Origin: a virus
DNA length: 64,000 bases
Direction: 5' to 3' (one strand)
UHGV virus genome: UHGV-1342921
Both the position numbers and the translations under genes were made by a program. The notes under the pieces were generated by a model. That model saw only the letters and a program-made list of their open reading frames with translations, was not told the DNA's origin and did not search any database. This document shows, piece by piece, positions 30,517 through 40,422 of this stretch. Positions within the stretch are counted from its first letter, which is position 1, and every line of letters starts with the position of its first letter.

Positions 30517-30774
30517 ATGAAGAGGTGTCCATTCTGTGGCGGTTCACCGACTATTATGGAAGGAACAAAATTTTCTAAAATTGAATGTAGCAAGTGCGGT
30601 AGTAGGACAACGTATTGTACAAGCGTTCAAGAAGCAGTTGAAATCTGGGATCATAGATTCAAGGTTGAGGAACCTGAAGACGATTGGTATATGTATTACC
30701 ATGTCAAAGCAGACGGCCCATATCCTGATGTCGAGATAAACAAGAAAGATATAAGCATCATTAAAGAAGATTAA
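30517..30774 (+). CDS. Lar-family (restriction alleviation-like) zinc-ribbon protein, copy 1
   Basis: MKRCPFCGG...KIECSKCGSRTTYCTS...AVEIWDHR matches the Lar-family CPFCGG...C-x(2)-CG...W pattern. Confidence 0.5.
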   Translation: MKRCPFCGGSPTIMEGTKFSKIECSKCGSRTTYCTSVQEAVEIWDHRFKVEEPEDDWYMYYHVKADGPYPDVEINKKDISIIKED

Positions 30775-30789
30775 AAAACACATACCGCA

Positions 30790-30839
30790 AGAAGAGGTAA
30801 AAGTCTTTGTTGACTTTTGCCTCTTTTTTGGTATATAAT
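30790..30839 (+). promoter_or_regulatory. Terminator hairpin overlapping a sigma-70-like promoter (TTGACT-18 bp-TATAAT)
   Basis: GAAGAGGtAAAAGTC-tttgtt-GACTTTTgCCTCTT followed by TTTTTTGG. TTGACT at 30810-30815 lies inside the 3' arm and TATAAT at 30834-30839. Confidence 0.6.
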
Positions 30840-30876
30840 AGTATCATTAAAAGCGAGAGCGAACGGGAGGAAGAGT

Positions 30877-31200
30877 ATGAACAAGTGCCCCTTTTGCGGA
30901 GGAAACGGTGTGGTAAAGAGCGGGACGCTCTTCTTCAAGGTCGAGTGCGACAATTGCGGTGCCTCCACGAAATATTGTTCAAGTAGGGAGGACGCAATCA
31001 GTATGTGGGAGATGCGCGACGATGATGGTGATGAAACGGAAGACAGCTGGGACAAGCTTGAAGACGAGGCCACGATGAGCCCTGGCGCATACGTAACAAA
31101 AGTGCTTCGCGTTGACACATCATACTACGGCTGTGACACAGAGATGATGGCAAAAGACCTTGTGAGACGTGCGAAGAGATTGGCAAACGAAGAACAATAA
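30877..31200 (+). CDS. Lar-family zinc-ribbon protein, copy 2 (paralogue with an acidic C-terminal extension)
   Basis: MNKCPFCGGNGVVKSGTLFFKVECDNCGASTKYCSSREDAISMWEMR. GGGAGGAAG RBS upstream of the ATG at 30877. Confidence 0.5.
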   Translation: MNKCPFCGGNGVVKSGTLFFKVECDNCGASTKYCSSREDAISMWEMRDDDGDETEDSWDKLEDEATMSPGAYVTKVLRVDTSYYGCDTEMMAKDLVRRAKRLANEEQ

Positions 31201-31317
31201 AAACTAAAGCCGAGGTGGTGAATATTAAATCCATGCTAGGGTATATATAAAATCAAGGAATGTTTTTAGTAAAGATACTTTTGATTTTGTATATACAAGA
31301 AAGAGGCTTAATTTTTT

Positions 31318-32262
31318 ATGGCAACTTTTAAAGAATTAGAGAAAATTTATTTTGACATGTACGGTAAACAGCTTGCTCGCCCTGCTTTACATCGGTGGGT
31401 AAAAAAAGGAGAAGTAAAAGCTGTTAAAATAAAACCTGACGAAATAAATTACGATAAACAGAGTTTTATAAACAAAATTACTAGCCAGTCGTACAAAAAC
31501 AAGGCTTTTAGACAAAACCCAGAAGACTACATTGGGAAGACTTGCGGATATTTGTTAATCCAGGGAGTAGTACCGCCAGAAGAAAGAAGAGACAAGGATT
31601 ACCATGGAACGATTATGAGATGCAAGTGTCTTGCTTGCGGAAAAGAAGATGTTCAAACTCGTTTTAGTTACGTGACAGGGCAAGGAAACTATTGCCAGAA
31701 AAGTTGTGGATGCGAACAGAAAATCCAACATTTTCTTACAACAACCAAAAGGATACCAGAACCTAAAAAGCCAAAAAACAAAAAAACACCAAAGAAAAAC
31801 GATTTTGTTGATAGATACAGATTTGATTTTGACAGATTTTTGTTTGTTCATAAAATGCTTATCAATAATGATGTTAAGCGTTATTTTCAAAAATGCGACC
31901 AAGGAGAATACGAAAACGCTGTAGATCATTTTTTTTACGACGAACAATTTCTTGCAGTGTATGATTTTTGGAAAGAAAAAACAAACAACGGAGAAAAAAC
32001 AAATACTTTTTATGATTGGTCAAAGCCTAGTTTAGATCATATTCTCCCTAAATCGAGAGGCGGAAGTTGTGACATTTCAAATTTACAAGTCCTAACGGTC
32101 TTTGAAAATCTCGCTAAAAGAGATATGACATGGGAAGAATGGCAAGACTTTAAACAAACAACTCATACACAATCTGATTATTTTATAGAAAACATCTTAA
32201 AAAGATATAGAGAAAAACAAAACAATGGCGAGAAAGAGGGAGGGAAGGATGACGACAACTAA
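31318..32262 (+). CDS. Free-standing HNH homing endonuclease with N-terminal zinc-ribbon repeats, in an AT-rich insert directly upstream of dnaE
   Basis: SLDHILPKSRGGSCDISNLQVLTVFENLAKRD is a classic HNH motif (DH...GG...N...N). KTCGYLLIQG...CKCLACGKEDVQTRFSYVTGQGNYCQKSCGC resembles the zinc-ribbon modules of the 15075 ORF. Very low GC compared with flanking genes. Its 3' end overlaps the dnaE start. Confidence 0.7.
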   Translation: MATFKELEKIYFDMYGKQLARPALHRWVKKGEVKAVKIKPDEINYDKQSFINKITSQSYKNKAFRQNPEDYIGKTCGYLLIQGVVPPEERRDKDYHGTIMRCKCLACGKEDVQTRFSYVTGQGNYCQKSCGCEQKIQHFLTTTKRIPEPKKPKNKKTPKKNDFVDRYRFDFDRFLFVHKMLINNDVKRYFQKCDQGEYENAVDHFFYDEQFLAVYDFWKEKTNNGEKTNTFYDWSKPSLDHILPKSRGGSCDISNLQVLTVFENLAKRDMTWEEWQDFKQTTHTQSDYFIENILKRYREKQNNGEKEGGKDDDN

Positions 32263-34749
32263 CCTTCGATTAGACTATCATTGTCATAGTTCATTGTCGA
32301 ATATCCGCTTACTTTGACTCGATCAATACTCTCGAAGATCTAACCAAACGAGCTGTCGAATTAGGTCTCCCTGGCATTGCGATTACTGAACACGAATGCC
32401 TTGGTAACTCTATTGATATAGAAATCCTTCAAGAAAAAATTCGACAAGAGCATCCTAGTTTTAAGATTGTTCATGGCAACGAAATCTACCTTACAGACGA
32501 TCGGTCTATGGGGCAAAAATACTATCATTTTATTTTGTTAGCTCTTGACGAGGTTGGTTTCCACATGATGTCCGAGCTGTCGTCTACCGCCTGGCTGAAC
32601 GGGTATTTCGACCGAGGACTCATGCGCGTGCCGACTTTGAAGTCAGACGTCGAGGACGTAATCAAGCGTTACGGGCAAGGCCACATCTACGCAAGCCAGG
32701 CTTGTCTTGGGTCGGAGTTAAGCACTTATGTCCTGAAAATGCACGACTGCCAGGAGAAGGGTGACAAAGAAGGTCGCAAGCACTGGCACGACGAGATCGT
32801 CAAGTTTGTGAGCTGGTGCACGAACACGTTCGGCAAGGACAACTTCTGCTTTGAGATTCAGCCGTCAAGGTCGCACGACCAGTTGATTCTCAATAACATC
32901 ATGCCGTCCATCGCAAAGGCGTTCAAACTGCCGATGTGCATTACGTGCGACGCCCATTACTTGACAAAGGAAGACGCCCCGATTCATAAGGCGTTCCTGA
33001 ACTCCAAGCAAGGCGATCGAGAGGTTGACGAGTTCTATTCTGCGACGTGGTTGCAGTCGGAGGATGAGATTCTTGAGCACCTTGAAGGCACTCCCGTCGA
33101 TTATGAGCAATGTTGCAAAGACAGCATGGCAATCTTTGATAGGGTGCAGGACTTCACCTTGAGGAAGCCACAAGAGGTGCCTGAAGCTCCCGTGCCGTTC
33201 AAGCCCAAGCGACATGTGGAATGTTCTAAATATCCCATCTTGTCGAAGCTGTATGAGTCTGACAGCGAGCAGGAAAGGTTCTGGGTAAACGAGTGCATCG
33301 GCCAACTGAAGAAACGAGGGCTGTATAACGACCAATACGTTTCAAGACTTGAAGAAGAAGCCGACGTTATGGATTATATCGGGCAGAAGCTCAACACCTG
33401 CATCTTCGCCTACTCACTGTTCATGCGCCACTATATCGACCTGATTTGGAACTGTGGCTCAACGGTTGGTGTCGGTCGTGGATCAGCTGGTGGCGGTTTA
33501 TCTCACTGGTTGCTTGGCATCACCGGCACAGACCCTATTATTAGTGGTAGCCATTTTTGGAGGTTTCTTAATAAAGAACGTGTCGAACTGCCTGATATTG
33601 ATATTGACGTGTGCCCATCCAAGCGAGAAGCTGTCTTCGAAGAGACACGCAAGGAGACTGGAGAGCTTGGTTGCGTGCACGTGTGCACCTATGGAACATT
33701 AACAACAAAGGCAACTATCAAGCTGGCTGGGCGAGGATACCGTTCCAAAGAGTACCCAAACGGCATCCCTCTTGAAGAGACTGAATACATCTCCTCTCTT
33801 GTGCCCTCCGAACGAGGATTTTTATGGACACTTAAGGACGTCATAAACGGCAATCCTGACAAGGGACGAAAGGCATCTGTGCAATTCAATGCAGAGATTG
33901 AGAAGTACCCTGGTCTCAAAGAGATTCTGTTCAAGATTGAAGGTCTTGTAGTTCAAGCAGGCATCCACGCAAGCGGTGTGATCTACCCGCCCAAGGAGGA
34001 CTATTACCGTTATGGACCTTTCATGAAGGCCAAGAACGGCACCATCATCACGCAGTATTCCCTGCACATGGCAGAAGCGGCAGGTGCCACCAAGATTGAC
34101 TGGCTCGTCACAGAAGTCCAAGAGGTCATCACCCAGTGCATCGAGGAGCTTCAGCAGGCTGGGTACATCGAGAAAGGCTTAACCCTGCGCGAGGCTTATG
34201 ACAAGTACGTCAGCCCTGATGCGATTCCTCTTGACGACCCTGACACTTGGGACGCTGTAGACCGAGCAGATGTCCTCAAGCTATTCCAGCTCGACTCTAT
34301 GATCGGTCGTCAAGGTGCAAGGCTCATCAAGCCTCGTTCAATCGAGGAGCTGACGGCTGTCAACGCATTGATTCGACTGATGGCAGACGACGGTGAGGAG
34401 CGCCCAATGGACAGGTACGTCCGTCACAAGGCGCATCCGGAAGAGTGGGAGAAGGAACTTGACGAGTACGGCCTGTCAGACGAGGAGAAGACTGTCCTAC
34501 ACAAGCATTTCGACTCAAGCTACGGCGTCTGCTACGCACAAGAGCAGATGATGATGGCATTGATGGACCCAGGCATTTGTGGGTTTGACTTCAAAGCCAG
34601 TAACCAGGCAAGAAAAATCGTGGCGAAGAAAAAGTTCGATCAGATTGAAAGCTTGCATAAGCAGATTGTTGAGAGTGCCGTTTCACCTGCTATGGCAAAG
34701 TATGTGTGGGACGTTGTCGTTAAACCTTCGTTAGGATACAGCTTCAACT
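32249..34749 (+). CDS. dnaE: DNA polymerase III alpha subunit (DnaE-type), exon 1. Translation needs a +1 frameshift at CTT TGA C (32312-32318); the PHP domain and polymerase core follow
   Basis: ATG at 32249 with a GAGGGAGGGAAGG RBS gives MTTTNLRLDYHCHSSLSNIRLL then TGA. The +1 frame continues DSINTLEDLTKRAVELGLPGIAITEHE...KIVHGNEIYL (PHP motifs), then ...GIHASGVIY..., KIDWLVTEV, ...SLGYSF. The ORF-track start at 32508 is an internal Met. Confidence 0.7.
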
Positions 34750-35036
34750 AGAGGAGCCTTTTACCGGTGACGGTAATAGCAAAGCTACTTAACTGCGGGA
34801 ACTTCTTTAGAGCCTATAACTACCAACCGTGCGTGGCGACATACATGGGGCAGAGGGTAACGCCCGAGATATGGTAACAAGGTTATAGGATTAGAAAATC
34901 CGCAACGCCACCTCTGGCTGTTAGACAGAGGAACGCCCAGAGACTACCACGTAGCCTTCTCTACAAGAGAAGATGGTATAGTCCAGACCGCAACACATAA
35001 GTGGCTGGGGAGACCCAGTGCGGTATTGCTCAAACG
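34750..35036 (+). mobile_element. ORF-less group I intron (about 290 nt) in dnaE; the boundaries are approximate
   Basis: The Pol III alpha alignment breaks between ...GYSFN and (F)HGYSYSIIGYQCAWLATHYP (canonical [27 protein letters not shown]). In-frame stops lie on both sides. The intervening sequence has a P-like AACTGCGGGAAC, a Q-like AAATCCGCAACG and an S-like AGATGGTATAGTCC element. Omega-G at 35036. Confidence 0.55.
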
Positions 35037-36346
35037 TTCACGGATATAGCTACTCAATCATCGGCTACCAGTGCGCATGGCTTGCAACACACTACCCGAA
35101 GGTGTTTTGGAACACTGCATGCCTTCGAGTGGACTCGGGCGTTGAAGACGATGCAACGACAAGTTATGACAAGATTTCAAAGGCGGTCGGCAACATTCTC
35201 AACGCAGGCATCAAAGTGTTGCCGATTGACATCAACAAGTCGGGGTACATGTTTGAGCCAGACGAGAAGACACAGTCGATTCTTTGCGGTCTTAAAGCGT
35301 TGATCGGCATCAATGGCGACACTGTTCAGCAAATCATCGAAAACAGGCCTTACAGTTCGTTCGATGACTTCCGAGAGAAGGTGCCGCTGAACAAGACGGC
35401 GATGATTTCACTCATCAAGGCTCACGCATTTGACTGCTTTGACGTCAGATACAACGTCATGGTTCAGTACATCACCGAGCAGAGCGAGCCCAAGTCCAAG
35501 CTGACGATGGCTAACCTGCAAGGTCTTATTGACAGGAGCATGATTCCGGCAGACTATCAGTTGCAGATCAGGACGTTCGTTTTCAACAAGTCCTTGCGTG
35601 CCAACTGCAAATTCAAGGAATGGTACACCCTTGAGGGCAGATACTATCGTTTCTATGAGAAGTTCTTCGACATAGACGAGCTTGAGAGCGTCGGCGGCAA
35701 GTTCTGCATCTCACAAAAGAAGTGGCAGAAGATGTATACAAAGATGATGGAGCCTGTGAAGAAGTACATCACCGACAACCAAAAGGCCCTGCTTGAACAG
35801 TTCAACCTCACGTTGTTCAACGAGCAATGGAACAAGTACGCATCGGGCACTCGCGGTTCGTGGGACATGAGTTCCCTGGGCTTCTATTCCGCCAAGCACG
35901 AGCTGGACGGCATAGAGTACGACAAGTACGGCCTGTCGAAGTTCTCAAGCCTGCCCGAGGAGCCTGTAGAAGCCGAGTCGCGTGGCAAGTTCAAGATTTA
36001 CAATCTCACGAGGATCTGCGGCACGGTTGTGGCGAAAGACGACACTCGTTCGACCTTCACTCTCCTCACCCCGGATTCAGGCTCCGTCGACGTCAAGCTT
36101 CCCAGGGAGATTTACGCCCACTACAACAGGAAGATCGTGCTGGAGAACTCTGGCTCGAAGATTTCCGAGGACGGGTGGTTCACAAGGGGCACGCTTCTCA
36201 TGGCATGCGGTTATCGGCAGGGAAACATGTTCAGGCTAAAGAGGTACAAGAACACGTCAAGCTTGCTGTTGTATAACATGGCGATAACCAAGAGTGGTAG
36301 GATAATCTGCACCGGAAGCCGCCTCGGTGACGAAGACGAGGTATAA
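35037..36346 (+). CDS. dnaE: DNA polymerase III alpha subunit, exon 2 (C-terminal HhH/OB region)
   Basis: HGYSYSIIGYQCAWLATHYPKVFW...AGIKVLPIDINKSGYMFEP...LCGLKALIGINGDTVQQIIENRPYSSFDDFREKV...LIKAHAFDCF matches the DnaE C-terminal region. Confidence 0.7.
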
Positions 36347-37087: not shown

Positions 37088-38389
37088 ATGAAAGTTAAAA
37101 AAAGGAACGGCAATCTCGAAAAGTACGACTTAAAGAAGATCAGACACGCGATTGAGCGTGCGTTTGAGGACATCTACGGTCAAGAGACGTACACAAATGA
37201 CATGCAGGTCAACATCAGCGGATTAGCTTCAGCGACAGAAGTCCAAATTTGCAAGGTTGGGGTCGCAGATGTAGAGGATATCCAAGATGTGGAGGATATC
37301 CAAGACGCTGTTGAAGACGTGTTGATGCTCAATGGATATTATGAGGTGGCGAAGGAGTATATTCGATACAGGTATCTCCACGAGCTACGTCGAAATGAGC
37401 GAGAGCAAGAGAAGTTTTATGACAGCATCGGTGAAAAGCTCAAAGCTACCAACGTTCAGAACCAGAATGCGAATGTCGATGAGAAGTCCTTCGGTGGTAG
37501 AATGGGTGAGGCCTGTTCTGAACTAACCCGTGATTACGCTTTAAAAAACTGTTTATCCGAAATGGCAAGGAACAACCATCTTAATAACGAGATTTACGAA
37601 CACGACCTTGATCATTACCCCACAGGAGACCACAACTGCCTGTCTATTCCATTTGACAAGCTTTTGGCTAATGGCTTCAACACAAGACAAACCGATGTAA
37701 GACCTGCAAATTCCGTCAATACGGCGTTTCAATTGGTTGCCGTCATTTTTCAGCTACAGAGTCTTATGCAGTTTGGTGGGGTAAGTGCGACGCATCTAGA
37801 TTGGACAATGGTTCCATATGTACGAAAGTCCTTCTTAAAGCATTTTAAAGACGGAATGCTTTGGTGGTGTAAGAGCTGTGACAACAGCGATAAATATGCT
37901 AAATTCCTCCGTGAAGTAGAAGACGGCTTGTGGCCCGACACACTCTTTATTGAAGACGAGAGATACAAAGTCCATGATATGGCTTATCAATACGCGGTCG
38001 AAATGACCAAGAAAGAGACTTATCAAGCGGTAGAAGGCATGTACCACAACCTAAATACACTACAAAGTCGAAGCGGGAACCAGCTTCCCTTTACATCAAC
38101 CAATTTCGGCACATGCACGCTTCCTGAAGGTCGTCTTGTCATAAAAGCAATGCTAGAAACTTCGATTCGCGGTCTTGGCAAGCTTCATAAAACCAGTATT
38201 TTTCCCTGCACTATTTTCCAGTGTATGAAGGGTGTCAATCGAGCTCCTGGAGATCCAAATTACGACCTGTTCCAGCTTGCTTTAAAATCAACCTCTCAAA
38301 GGCTTTACCCCAACTATGCTAACGTAGATTGGTCTGGCAACGCTGGCTACGATAGAAACGATCCAAAGACCTACTTCAGCACCATGGGT
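37088..38389 (+). CDS. nrdD: Anaerobic ribonucleoside-triphosphate reductase NrdD, exon 1 (ATP-cone plus catalytic barrel up to the ...YFSTMG active-site loop)
   Basis: N-terminal ATP-cone VKKRNGNLEKYDLKKIRHAIERA. Exon 1 ends ...TMG and exon 2 begins CRTANG..., which reconstitutes the conserved NrdD MGCR motif (E. coli SPMGCRSFLG). Confidence 0.8.
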
Positions 38390-39483
38390 AAGCGTAAACT
38401 ATAGCTCATGTAAAACCTCCTTAACCTCGCCAGAGGGTGTGGGTTCTTAAACTCGCTAACGGTTAGGGCTCTTATGAGTTGAGACCGTGCTAAACACTCT
38501 AAAAATGTTGTTCTTTTCTGACTCTCTTGAACAAAAAAGGGGTACATACAAGAGAAAGCAGTTAGAAAGGACCAACATGTATATCTACAAAGTAACAAAC
38601 AGTTTGAACGGTAAATTTTATATTGGGCAAACGGTTCGAACTCCAGAATCCAGATGGGAACGTCATAAAAATGATGCCCTAGGAGATCGTCACCTTGATA
38701 CACATTTTGCGAGAGCTATTAGAAAATATGGCCCTGAAAATTTTACCATTGAAACAATTGACACTGCATCCTCTCAAGAAGAACTGACGAAGAAAGAACA
38801 TGATTGGATAGTTAAGACTCGGGCGGTAGAGAAAGGTTATAACGAAACTTCTGCTATCGAAAAATGTGGTGGTAACACCTACGAGTCAAAAACCAAAGAA
38901 GAACTTGCTTGTATTGGTGAGAAAATTAGAAAAACTAAACTTGGTGGCAACAATCCTCACTCAACAAAGGTAAAATGTAAAGACACTACCACGGGCGAAG
39001 AATTTCATTTTAATTCTCAAGTAGAAATGCAAAAGTTCTTTGGCGCTCCTAATCACCTGTTTATTTCACGACGTTGTCTTGGACAAGTAAAAAGTTTATA
39101 CAAAAAACGCTGGCTAATCTCTTACGAAGAAGGAGAGATTATTGCGAAGAACCATATTGGAAAAGGTTCAGAAAGAGCAACCGGCGTTTACGTAAAAGAT
39201 TTACAAACAGGGGAAAGTAAGTCTTTTCCCAGCTATTCCGATGCAGAGCGATATTTTGGACAGAAGGAAAGAGCTTTTAGTAGCAAAGCCTACAAAAGAG
39301 GCAATTCTTTTGTTTATAAAAGTAGATATGAAATTACAAAAATTTTAGAGTGAAAGTGTATCGACTATCCCTGATGAATGTAAGGGAGTAGGGCTAGAGA
39401 TAGGCACTAGCTCGAAACGGGAGGCTACCGTCTTATGAAGGTAGAAGATATAGTCAGTGCAGATGGTGACATCTGATAACACG
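38390..39483 (+). mobile_element. Group I intron (about 1.09 kb) in nrdD encoding a GIY-YIG homing endonuclease
   Basis: Exon 1 ends in U (ggU at 38389). S element AAGATATAGTCAGTGC at 39448-39463, about 20 nt before the omega-G at 39483. Exon frames are continuous across the junction. Core sequence shared with the dnaB intron. Confidence 0.8.
38577..39353 (+). CDS. GIY-YIG homing endonuclease (I-TevI/I-TevII-like) within the nrdD intron
   Basis: MYIYKVTNSLNGKFYIGQT (GIY...YIG), R-x(3)-H, IRKYGPENF, conserved E/N. GAAAGGA RBS upstream of the ATG at 38577. Confidence 0.8.
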   Translation: MYIYKVTNSLNGKFYIGQTVRTPESRWERHKNDALGDRHLDTHFARAIRKYGPENFTIETIDTASSQEELTKKEHDWIVKTRAVEKGYNETSAIEKCGGNTYESKTKEELACIGEKIRKTKLGGNNPHSTKVKCKDTTTGEEFHFNSQVEMQKFFGAPNHLFISRRCLGQVKSLYKKRWLISYEEGEIIAKNHIGKGSERATGVYVKDLQTGESKSFPSYSDAERYFGQKERAFSSKAYKRGNSFVYKSRYEITKILE

Positions 39484-40422
39484 TGTAGGACCGCCAATGG
39501 ATACGACATCAATGGCATGGCCCAGACAAAAGACGGACGAGGGAACATCTGTCCTGTCACTATAATTATGCCGACTCTTGCTATGGAAGCCGACCGAGAT
39601 GTAGAGAAGTTCATGGAACTTCTTGACAAAAAGATTCACGAAGCCAAAGACATGCTTTTGGAACGTTTTGAGTACATCTGCTCACAGTCTCCTGAATCGG
39701 GCAAGTTCATGTACGAGAACGGCACTATGGAGGGATATATTCCGGAAGAGGGTATCCGTAGCGCTCTCAAGCATGGTACGTTGGCGCTTGGCCAGTTAGG
39801 ACTAGCGGAAACGCTTCAACTGCTTATCGGAACAGACCAGACAACAGACAAAGGAATGGAATTGGCCAAGCGTATCGAGTCTTTGTTCCGCAAGCGCTGT
39901 GATGAGTTTAAGCACAAGTACAAGCTTAATTTTGGAGTTTATTACACACCAGCAGAGAATCTATGCTTTAAAGCTCTTAAAAAGTTTAGAGCTAAATATG
40001 GCGTTATTCCTAACGTGTCAGACAAAGATTTCTTTACTAACTCTATTCATTGTCCTGTATGGAGCGATTTAACAGTTATGGAAAAGATTGACATTGAGTC
40101 TCAACTCACAGGATATTCCAACGCGGGCTGCATCGTTTACGCCGAATTGCCATCAACCACTAAGAACAACCTTGAAGCACTTGAGACTATTGTAAATTAT
40201 GCAATGGATAAAGATATCCCTTATTTTGCCATCAACGTGCCGAACGACACTTGCCTTGACTGCGGATATTGCGACGAGTTCAACGACCATTGCCCAATGT
40301 GCGGAAGCACTCATATTCAACAGCTTCGTAGAGTGACAGGCTACTTAACTGGGAACTATACCACCGCGTTCAATCTCGGCAAGCAAGACGAGGTTCACCA
40401 TAGAGCCAAGAATGCAAGATAA
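39484..40422 (+). CDS. nrdD: NrdD exon 2 (C-terminal half with the zinc ribbon and glycyl-radical motif)
   Basis: ...YYTPAENLCFKA, SDKDFFTNSIHCPV, CLDCGYC...CPMCGS (zinc ribbon), and RRVTGYLTGN...FNLGKQDEVHHR (glycyl radical RVxGY plus C-terminal tail), colinear with E. coli NrdD. Confidence 0.8.
   Translation, partial: CRTANGYDINGMAQTKDGRGNICPVTIIMPTLAMEADRDVEKFMELLDKKIHEAKDMLLERFEYICSQSPESGKFMYENGTMEGYIPEEGIRSALKHGTLALGQLGLAETLQLLIGTDQTTDKGMELAKRIESLFRKRCDEFKHKYKLNFGVYYTPAENLCFKALKKFRAKYGVIPNVSDKDFFTNSIHCPVWSDLTVMEKIDIESQLTGYSNAGCIVYAELPSTTKNNLEALETIVNYAMDKDIPYFAINVPNDTCLDCGYCDEFNDHCPMCGSTHIQQLRRVTGYLTGNYTTAFNLGKQDEVHHRAKNAR

Follow-up and report, generated by a model that had tools for sequence, protein, structure and literature searches.

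The dnaE gene of an uncultured gut phage, carried on a 64,000-nucleotide stretch of UHGV virus genome UHGV-1342921 (hereafter the window), changes its reading frame by one base after codon 22, and comparison with related sequences confirms this frame change as genuine. The break lies at CTT TGA C, where a stop codon closes a very short open reading frame (ORF) while the rest of the polymerase continues in the +1 frame. Taken as a whole, the data make it probable that this is a genuine +1 ribosomal frameshift of the type found in prfB, the release factor 2 (RF2) gene, which operates without a Shine-Dalgarno (SD) stimulator and resides in a mobile homing-endonuclease cassette.

Frame geometry and predicted fusion product of dnaE

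The elements at the 5' end of dnaE are as follows.
32236-32248, + strand: Shine-Dalgarno-like sequence GAGGGAGGGAAGG, directly 5' of the dnaE start codon, read from the sequence
32249-32317, + strand: dnaE ORF1, 22 sense codons (MTTTNLRLDYHCHSSLSNIRLL) followed by TGA, with the His-x-His (HxH) metal-ligand motif of the PHP domain, from translation and alignments
32306-32318, + strand: constrained core CGC TTA CTT TGA C, from comparison across loci with the same kind of site (type I, defined below)
32312-32318, + strand: proposed shift site CTT TGA C, with UUA in the E site, CUU in the P site, UGA in the A site and a 3' C
32316-34744, + strand: +1-frame continuation of dnaE (exon 1), first codon GAC (Asp), encoding the rest of the PHP domain, the Pol III alpha catalytic core and the fingers

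ORF1 begins with the ATG at 32249-32251 and its frame 0 closes at TGA 32315-32317, while the +1 frame is open from 32271 to 34751 (825 codons), reading ...YF-DSINTLEDLTKRAVELGLPGIAITEHE..., and contains the Pfam domains PHP, DNA_pol3_alpha and DNA_pol3_finger. The initial annotation had described an ATG behind a strong ribosome-binding site, an HxH-bearing ORF ending in TGA, a stop-free +1 frame leading into the PHP domain and the Pol III alpha core, and the prfB heptamer at the junction; coordinates, translation and Pfam domains all agree with this description, and the heptamer is exact. P-site CUU, in-frame UGA and 3' C, the three elements of an RF2-type site, are all present at 32312-32318. 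There is no ATG, GTG or TTG in the +1 frame upstream of 32508, so that the 64 conserved codons 3' of the site, including those for ITEHE, are unreachable by ordinary initiation. The HxH motif lies in the frame of ORF1 and the Asp with the remaining PHP domain lies in the +1 frame, and a functional protein would appear to need the fusion of the short ORF0 to the long +1 ORF.

A suppressor tRNA or an alternative genetic code was ruled out as an explanation of the stop. TGA is a normal stop codon in the window, where it terminates 9 of 57 long ORFs; TAA, TAG and TGA all close long ORFs, and the six tRNAs are ordinary ones, none of them a suppressor.

The heptamer by itself is not a rare sequence. 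CTTTGAC occurs 27 times in the window against an expectation of 12.5 +/- 3.5, a count that none of 100 dinucleotide-preserving shuffles reached, and most copies sit within genes, where they are read as TTT GAC (Phe-Asp) or similar. Only at the copy at 32312 is a short ORF that ends in a stop followed by a long +1 ORF, and this geometry was found at none of the other 26 copies in the window. The significance of the site therefore rests on its frame geometry and on its comparative conservation.

A homologue search with the hypothetical fusion protein as the query returned 2398 homologues; in many of them, such as P0001 (MIPRFDYHNHTDMSNIRIIDSINKLD) and P0006 (MVPRFDYHCHSDMSNIRLVDSINTLKGL), the N-terminus is continuous. 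The intact proteins P0001, P0003 and P0005-8 are colinear with the fusion and read DYHxH(T/S)xxSN(I/L)R(L/I)(L/I/V)DSIN across the junction, and the fusion residues R7, H11, H13, S17, N18, R20 and D23 are invariant in a 19-sequence alignment. The PHP motif is recovered exactly when one T is skipped (CTT-T-GAC), giving ...SNIRLL-DSINTLEDL.... When the family profile is aligned to Thermus aquaticus Pol III alpha (2HPI, HLHQHTQFS---LLDGAAK), the junction separates LL from the Asp that belongs to the first PHP motif, just where the initial annotation had expected a slip to recreate LL-D. The PHP domain, the Pol III alpha core, the fingers and the HhH domain follow in the expected order (Pfam PF02811, PF07733, PF17657 and PF14579), and the profile matches in the PDB are the Taq and E. 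coli Pol III alpha subunits. Judged by these matches, the gene product is a DnaE/YorL-type Pol III alpha, a replicative polymerase, with a predicted complete length of ~1270 amino acids and a predicted trans-frame tryptic peptide LLDSINTLEDLTK. Truncated or split gene calls, with an internal Met start or an out-of-frame N-terminus, are found in many metagenomic phage genomes, among them those of P0002, P0004, P0016, P0017, P0049 and P0083-98.

In the proposed mechanism, ribosomes would start at the ATG at 32249 and make 22 residues including the PHP His-x-His. Once CUU (Leu22) occupied the P site and UGA-C the A site, termination would be slow, UGA followed by C being a slow and poor termination signal; the peptidyl-tRNA-Leu would then slip +1 from CUU to UUU, and GAC (Asp) would be read next. 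Such slippage is established for the prfB site, and an E-site codon made of A and U only, here UUA, would fit the E-site effects known from that site. The product would be the full PHP motif joined to a polymerase of ~1270 residues, and ribosomes terminating at UGA would release a useless 22-mer; as the shift would occur already at codon 22, failed attempts would be cheap.

Shifted loci, the HNH gene and related interruptions

The same break is present in the closest genomes that share the site. The phage L008 (IMG/VR UViG_3300045988_157119, 95% nucleotide identity) has a site identical to that of the window, and in L001 (Logan SRR29133853, a different sample, 89-93% nucleotide identity) the frames are arranged alike around GTT TGA C. 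Evolution as coding sequence is also evident on both sides of the site, on each in its own frame. When the window is compared with L009, the +1 frame shows 31 synonymous and 12 non-synonymous codon differences 3' of the site, where the other two frames give 3/39 and 2/40, and this synonymous excess points to purifying selection on downstream codons that have no start of their own. In the clade L018-26, the changes upstream of the interruption found there are synonymous in the ORF1 frame (CAT/CAC, TAT/TAC, TCC/TCT). Across the ~1270 codons of dnaE in the window, no further frame break was found.

For a wider survey, loci were classed as type I (dnaE with the one-nucleotide interruption seen in the window), type II (a stop-containing short-gap interruption) or intact (a single frame). 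The degenerate pattern CAYNNNCAYWSNNNNNNNWSNAAYHTNMGNNTNNTTTGAYWSN, which leaves open the first base of the shift codon (NTT), the Arg codon, the Leu codon and the base after TGA (C or T), was scanned in IMG/VR and then in JGI/ENA metagenomes, and a match was accepted as a dnaE context where the +1 frame continues D[SC]IN...T[DE]H[ED]. This yielded 35 unique type I dnaE contexts from IMG/VR and 63 with the metagenomes added. The shift codon is CTT and the Arg codon CGN in all 63; the stop context is TGA-C in 56 and TGA-T in 7, while the codon before the shift codon is TTA in 57, TTG in 5 and TTT in 1. Three clearly non-dnaE matches from the metagenome scan show other codons at these positions, so the pattern itself does not force the uniformity. 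Moreover, 68 unique relatives without the type I interruption vary at the corresponding positions, with CTT in 15/68, GAC in 20/68, TTR in 31/68 and CGN in 44/68 (Fisher P from 2e-12 to 6e-5, relatedness ignored). Among type I loci the codons beside the core vary freely, and the conserved unit is therefore CGY TTA CTT TGA C. The proteins downstream are highly divergent (36-49% identity to the window over 360 residues), and the Ile codon after the site may be ATT, ATC or ATA, with no conserved start. Co-conversion of the entire ORF1 was considered as a source of the shared core and rejected, the ORF1 peptides differing widely among type I lineages, which have only the 13-nucleotide core in common.

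The distribution of the type I state is patchy. In a neighbour-joining tree of 99 DnaE N-terminal regions it is polyphyletic and needs at least 13 changes, and the nearest DnaE relatives of the window, L009 (92%), L002 (86%) and P0001 (75%), are not shifted in this way. The initial annotation had suggested that the same site be compared in related phages, an uninterrupted frame there counting against a shift; many relatives are indeed single-frame, and many others share exactly this interruption.

The patchiness goes together with a neighbouring gene, which, along with the tract in which it lies, was delimited as follows.
31318-32262, + strand: free-standing HNH (His-Me finger) endonuclease gene, 314 amino acids, the proposed homing endonuclease of the cassette
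31129-32665, no strand assigned: low-divergence tract relative to L008, including the HNH gene, the dnaE start and the shift site

The 3' end of the HNH gene overlaps the ribosome-binding site and the start codon of dnaE. The protein in the window matches Pfam HNH_5 at 19.6 bits, which is below the cut-off, while homologues at other shifted loci reach 25.8 bits with PF01844 HNH against a gathering threshold of 21.4; the PHROG matches of the ORF are endonuclease VII and HNH endonuclease. With tblastn, an HNH homologue at the same position was detected at 19/31 type I loci and at none of 57 intact and 18 type II loci (P = 3e-13), and in the enlarged set it accompanies 29 of 53 type I contexts. 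Free-standing homing-type endonuclease gene and recoded gene thus lie side by side; the endonuclease accompanies the insert, and related genomes without the insert lack the endonuclease as well (19/31 vs 0/75).

Several observations also point to joint horizontal transfer. The HNH-positive type I loci are distributed over 9 DnaE clusters with less than 70% identity between them, and the HNH proteins are on average more alike than the DnaE N-terminal regions (53% vs 48%), as is marked in the pair L097 and L101 (HNH 82%, DnaE 59%); a greater similarity of HNH than of DnaE was seen in several pairs, and the polyphyly of the type I state agrees with it. In addition, the window and L008 differ at only 4 of 1426 nucleotides in the tract vs 6.1% in the flanks (Poisson P = 7e-32), and against L001 the tract is ~4.9% divergent, with flanks at ~10%. 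The low-divergence tract reads as the signature of a recent joint transfer of the HNH gene and the shift site, a pattern that would be expected from homing with co-conversion.

The proposed cassette would consist of the HNH gene directly before dnaE and the shifted site ~50 nucleotides downstream, and would have spread among very divergent phages. By analogy with the T4 mobA/gene 60 cassette, the extra T would most likely destroy the endonuclease target in the conserved HxH...LLD coding stretch; carrier genomes would thereby be immune, and frameshifting would keep the essential dnaE functional.

The HNH gene is closely preceded by two tandem Lar-like restriction-alleviation genes (phrog_599, 30517-31200), and the stretch of low divergence from L008 starts within the second of them, at ~31129. 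A second endonuclease-like family takes the place of the HNH gene directly before dnaE in L021, L033, L037, L067 and L084, with repeated CxC...CGC zinc-ribbon modules and a weak DUF2726-like nuclease domain; the zinc-ribbon module is common to this family and the HNH family. As a nuclease linked to the interruption, the Zn-ribbon/DUF2726-like family was rejected, since it is found upstream of dnaE in intact and interrupted loci alike.

Sister lineages have dnaE interruptions of another kind. The type II loci (L002-L007, L009, L011-13, L016, L040, L067, L135, L147, L156 and L190-L218) are interrupted at dnaE codons ~14-18, about 15-25 nucleotides upstream of the position of the shift site in the window and after H-x-H-T-x-Y-S. 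Their layout is a Ser codon (TCT or TCC), TAG or TAA, 0-10 further nucleotides, a second Ser codon (TCN) and an Asn codon (AAY), as in TCT TAGG TCT AAT or TCC TAGAGGGGTAG TCA AAC. The gaps seen measure 3-13 nucleotides (TAG, TAGG, TAAC, TAGAC, TAAAG, TAGGG, TAGTG, TAGGTG, TAGGTA, TAGTGGG, TAGAGGGGTAG and TAGACGGGAGTGG), and when the scan pattern was relaxed to leave out the second Ser codon, this codon was present all the same in 16/16 true dnaE matches. A hop of peptidyl-tRNA-Ser from the first to the second Ser codon would give a product of exact consensus length. In L009 a TAG closes the downstream frame immediately before the landing codon, so that no simple frameshift can join the two frames. 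A further variant, in L018-26, reads TAT TCY TAACC AAC TTA (dnaE codon ~17), with a gap of 5 nucleotides and no Ser landing codon, ACC being a 2-of-3 match.

Clustering of all ORFs upstream of dnaE revealed no endonuclease specific to type II alleles. The only candidate obtained was a Lar-like small protein, which was discarded as a type II partner, its enrichment tracking phylogeny. That the type II alleles are resistance alleles of the same target region is speculation. A broader picture would unite the two kinds of interruption: the 5' end of dnaE in this gut and rumen phage family might be an arena of co-evolution between homing endonucleases and recoding, in which a 1-nucleotide immunity insertion would have survived as an optimal RF2-type site and spread with the HNH gene, and other lineages would have independently fixed gaps of 3-13 nucleotides, decoded by Ser-to-Ser hops, in the same stretch of ~40 nucleotides. 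We regard the chances for and against this picture as evenly balanced.

Objections and alternative readings

Several points weigh against a +1 frameshift in a homing cassette. No SD-like element lies just 5' of the CTT (TCG AAT ATC CGC TTA CTT), as the initial annotation had already remarked for the position 3 nucleotides upstream, and the type I consensus there, Ser-Asn-Ile/Leu-Arg-Leu, has no GGAGG-like motif; in addition, folding of the RNA from 32240 to 32400 predicted no stable structure (z = -0.61). With both the SD stimulator and an RNA structure absent, the efficiency of the shift may be low or modest, perhaps only a few percent to judge by E. coli. What the sequences show directly is the frame geometry, the conserved site with its constrained synonymous positions, the association with the HNH gene and the tract of joint transfer; the ribosomal shift and its efficiency are inferred, and even a modest efficiency may be enough for a polymerase. 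The Fisher P values given above are optimistic because the sequences are not phylogenetically independent, and repeated co-conversion, instead of selection for efficient frameshifting, could account for part of the synonymous conservation of the 13-nucleotide core. With respect to the cassette, cleavage of the uninterrupted site by the HNH protein is assumed by analogy, and this site is a putative target. The HNH gene is absent from 12/31 type I loci (24/53 in the enlarged set), so that the link to a cassette requires secondary loss; the site may also have a role that is independent of the endonuclease.

Such an independent role is the substance of the alternative that survives best, in which the shifty stop would be a regulatory sensor that tunes polymerase synthesis to RF2 activity or to the translational state of the host, the HNH gene being incidental. 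The exact RF2 heptamer, the conserved weak-terminator context and A/U-rich E-site codon, the persistence of the site where the HNH gene is missing and its very early position, which makes abortive products cheap, would all suit a sensor. On the other hand, most relatives do without the site, including the close P0001 and P0003 (72-75% identity), the type I loci are dispersed over the tree and closely tied to a mobile endonuclease, the stimulators discussed above are lacking, and nothing connects dnaE to termination factors. We consider a sensor unlikely. The purpose proposed in the initial annotation, a coupling of replicase synthesis to termination efficiency, finds no support in the data, and any regulatory purpose is probably secondary to the explanation by a mobile element.

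The frame arrangement might also be read as two separate products, ORF1 being a 22-residue peptide of its own and the polymerase arising from reinitiation at a non-canonical start or at the ATG at 32508. Gene callers do start the downstream ORF at internal ATGs in P0002, P0004 and P0025. The lack of any ATG, GTG or TTG before 32508 speaks against it, as does the Ile codon after the site, which is not conserved as a start; a start at 32508 would moreover remove PHP motifs that are under selection, namely the Asp, ITEHE and ~85 residues in all, and a PHP active site separated from its first two His ligands is implausible. Two products are accordingly very unlikely.

The initial annotation had also allowed for a pseudogene; dnaE would then be inactive and replication would depend on another polymerase. 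A predicted intron (described below) interrupts dnaE as well, and the region is dense in selfish elements, which might suggest decay. Yet the rest of the gene has no frame breaks, purifying selection acts on either side of the site in the proper frame of each, and the shift site itself is conserved and constrained; furthermore, intron-less relatives read straight through at the intron position, where the predicted intron scores below the Rfam gathering threshold. A pseudogene thus seems scarcely credible. The least probable reading is the other doubt that the initial annotation had raised, a sequencing or assembly error in which an extra T, a typical fault of some platforms in short T runs, disrupts a single-frame gene; it is effectively refuted by the sequence comparisons, given that the same break occurs in L008, in L001 from another sample and in 63 unique contexts from many independent projects, that the T run is only 3 long, and that the nearby insertions of 3-13 nucleotides in sister lineages cannot be homopolymer faults. 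The proposal of a real +1 shift that fuses the HxH ORF to the rest of dnaE is in turn strongly supported by the close relatives, the 63 contexts, the intact homologues and the selection on the downstream codons.

Genome context and comparison with known systems

The window is a replication module of an uncultured phage genome of roughly 140 kb, with genes for GyrB, GyrA, DnaB, a Toprim primase, a DHH/RecJ-like protein, a Dam methylase, two Lar-like proteins, the HNH protein, DnaE, guanylate kinase, NrdD, NrdG and FolD. A cluster of six tRNA genes, Gly-TCC, Ser-GCT, Ser-CGA, Ile-TAT, Arg-CCT and Pro-TGG, lies at 498-1741 on the - strand. Megablast of the region against deposited phages gave no match, and with tblastn the best DnaE relatives among deposited phages have ~37% identity or less (Enterococcus EF1 and VRE9, Phass-1 and SPbeta YorL). 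The related contigs are binned mostly with metagenome-assembled genomes of Bacillota.

Further downstream, dnaE is interrupted a second time, separately from the frameshift.
34745-35028, + strand: putative group I intron of 284 nucleotides without an ORF, interrupting dnaE after ...LGYSF
35029-36346, + strand: dnaE exon 2 (HHH_6 and C-terminal region) with its stop at 36344-36346, from translation, Pfam HHH_6 and intron-less homologues

The intron matches the full-length model of Rfam RF00028 with 27.3 bits (E = 4.9e-5 in a 501-nucleotide search), below the gathering score of 50. Its boundaries were set from intron-less relatives and the U/G splice rule: L002 and L009 read LGYSF-SNVHGYS, which makes the insertion exactly 284 nucleotides long, with the 5' exon ending in U and the intron in G. 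The intron region is less divergent than its flanks in comparison with both L008 and L001, and the Pfam domain HHH_6 is found in the ORF at 35018-36346.

Further interruptions were seen. The nrdD gene (37088-40422) is split into a first part at 37088-38404, covering NRDD profile positions 2-265 and the ATP-cone, and a second part at 39457-40422, covering NRDD 263-560 and the glycyl radical domain, with a GIY-YIG/NUMOD1 endonuclease ORF (38487-39353) between them; the NrdD of L007 is unsplit (694 amino acids). In L001 (6001-9653), the 98%-identical relative, dnaE contains a LAGLIDADG intein at GRG|C...SAGGGL, which the window does not have, and many distant homologues are split near the same GRG|C motif, with gene calls of ~430-460 amino acids.

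Recognition of the shift site corrects the annotation of an essential gene in widespread gut and rumen phages of 120-200 kb. CUU UGA C is the textbook example of a single gene family, prfB, and its presence in a phage replicase without an SD element would test what the minimal site is and how much weight the E-site UUA and the 3' C carry. In the searchable literature, the coverage of which is limited, nothing was found on a frameshift in a phage dnaE or Pol III alpha gene, nor on a +1 site linked to an endonuclease. A +1 shift at a shifty stop and the logic of an endonuclease paired with a recoded insert are already known; as far as we can tell, the combination of the two, dnaE as the host gene, the absence of an SD stimulator and the breadth of the distribution are new.

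The likeness to prfB concerns the site itself. The heptamer is identical in its P-site CUU, in-frame UGA and 3' C, and in both genes ORF0 is very short (22 codons in dnaE, about 25 in E. coli prfB), the +1 ORF encodes nearly the whole protein, and a slip from CUU to UUU gives Leu-Asp. In contrast to dnaE, prfB has an SD-like stimulator 3 nucleotides upstream, and its E-site codon is UAU instead of UUA. The autoregulation by RF2 that operates in prfB is impossible for dnaE, the product of which is a Pol III alpha-type polymerase. Moreover, the prfB site is vertically conserved, whereas the dnaE site is patchy and linked to a mobile endonuclease. The closest relatives among deposited phages are the polymerases of SPbeta (YorL) and of the Enterococcus schiekviruses EF1 and VRE9. 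They agree in domain architecture at ~37% identity and matched the query in one continuous protein-level piece, with no sign of an interruption.

To our knowledge, T4 gene 60/mobA is essentially the only case that links a homing endonuclease to ribosomal recoding, and a second independent, diverse and still mobile system would make the origin of such arrangements experimentally approachable. Short-hop variants such as those of type II would in addition provide natural substrates for studies of bypassing. If the co-evolutionary picture drawn above is true, the dnaE loci would be a second, independent and far more diverse counterpart of T4 mobA/gene 60, offering a graded natural series (+1 and gaps of 3, 4, 5, 6, 7, 11 and 13 nucleotides) in which the evolution of bypassing could be studied.

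The type II loci can also be set beside the short ribosomal hops over stop codons, synthetic or low-level, of Weiss, Gesteland and Atkins. The layout of take-off codon, stop and landing codon is shared; type II differs in being natural and apparently obligatory in an essential gene, and the window uses a +1 site instead. In two type II gaps, GGGAG or GAGGGG stands only a few nucleotides ahead of the landing codon, which recalls the SD element of the gene 60 gap.

In T4, a frame-breaking insert beside a free-standing endonuclease gene protects its carrier and is decoded by recoding (bioRxiv 10.1101/2022.08.31.505936; PMC5009743), and the mobA/gene 60 cassette itself is credited to Bonocora et al. 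2011 as cited in bioRxiv 10.1101/2022.08.31.505936; the roles of the stop codon after the take-off site have been treated as well (bioRxiv 10.1101/2022.08.31.505936; PMC5009743). Like that cassette, the dnaE locus has a free-standing HNH-family endonuclease gene beside an essential gene of DNA metabolism and a nearby frame-disrupting insert that needs recoding, with a stop following the last decoded codon; in both systems, insert and endonuclease travel together, the insert stands alone in some lineages, and there are indications of joint transfer. The differences are equally clear, in that gene 60 has a 50-nucleotide gap, GGA take-off and landing codons, stem-loops and a nascent-peptide signal, whereas dnaE has one nucleotide and a +1 slip. 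The mobA insert protects from cleavage, and in the dnaE cassette such protection is putative, by analogy. The host gene is dnaE here and a topoisomerase gene in T4, and the two elements are not homologous in sequence. With an interruption of a single nucleotide and no significant RNA structure predicted, the dnaE cassette is not a member of the gene 60 family and is analogous to it in logic only.

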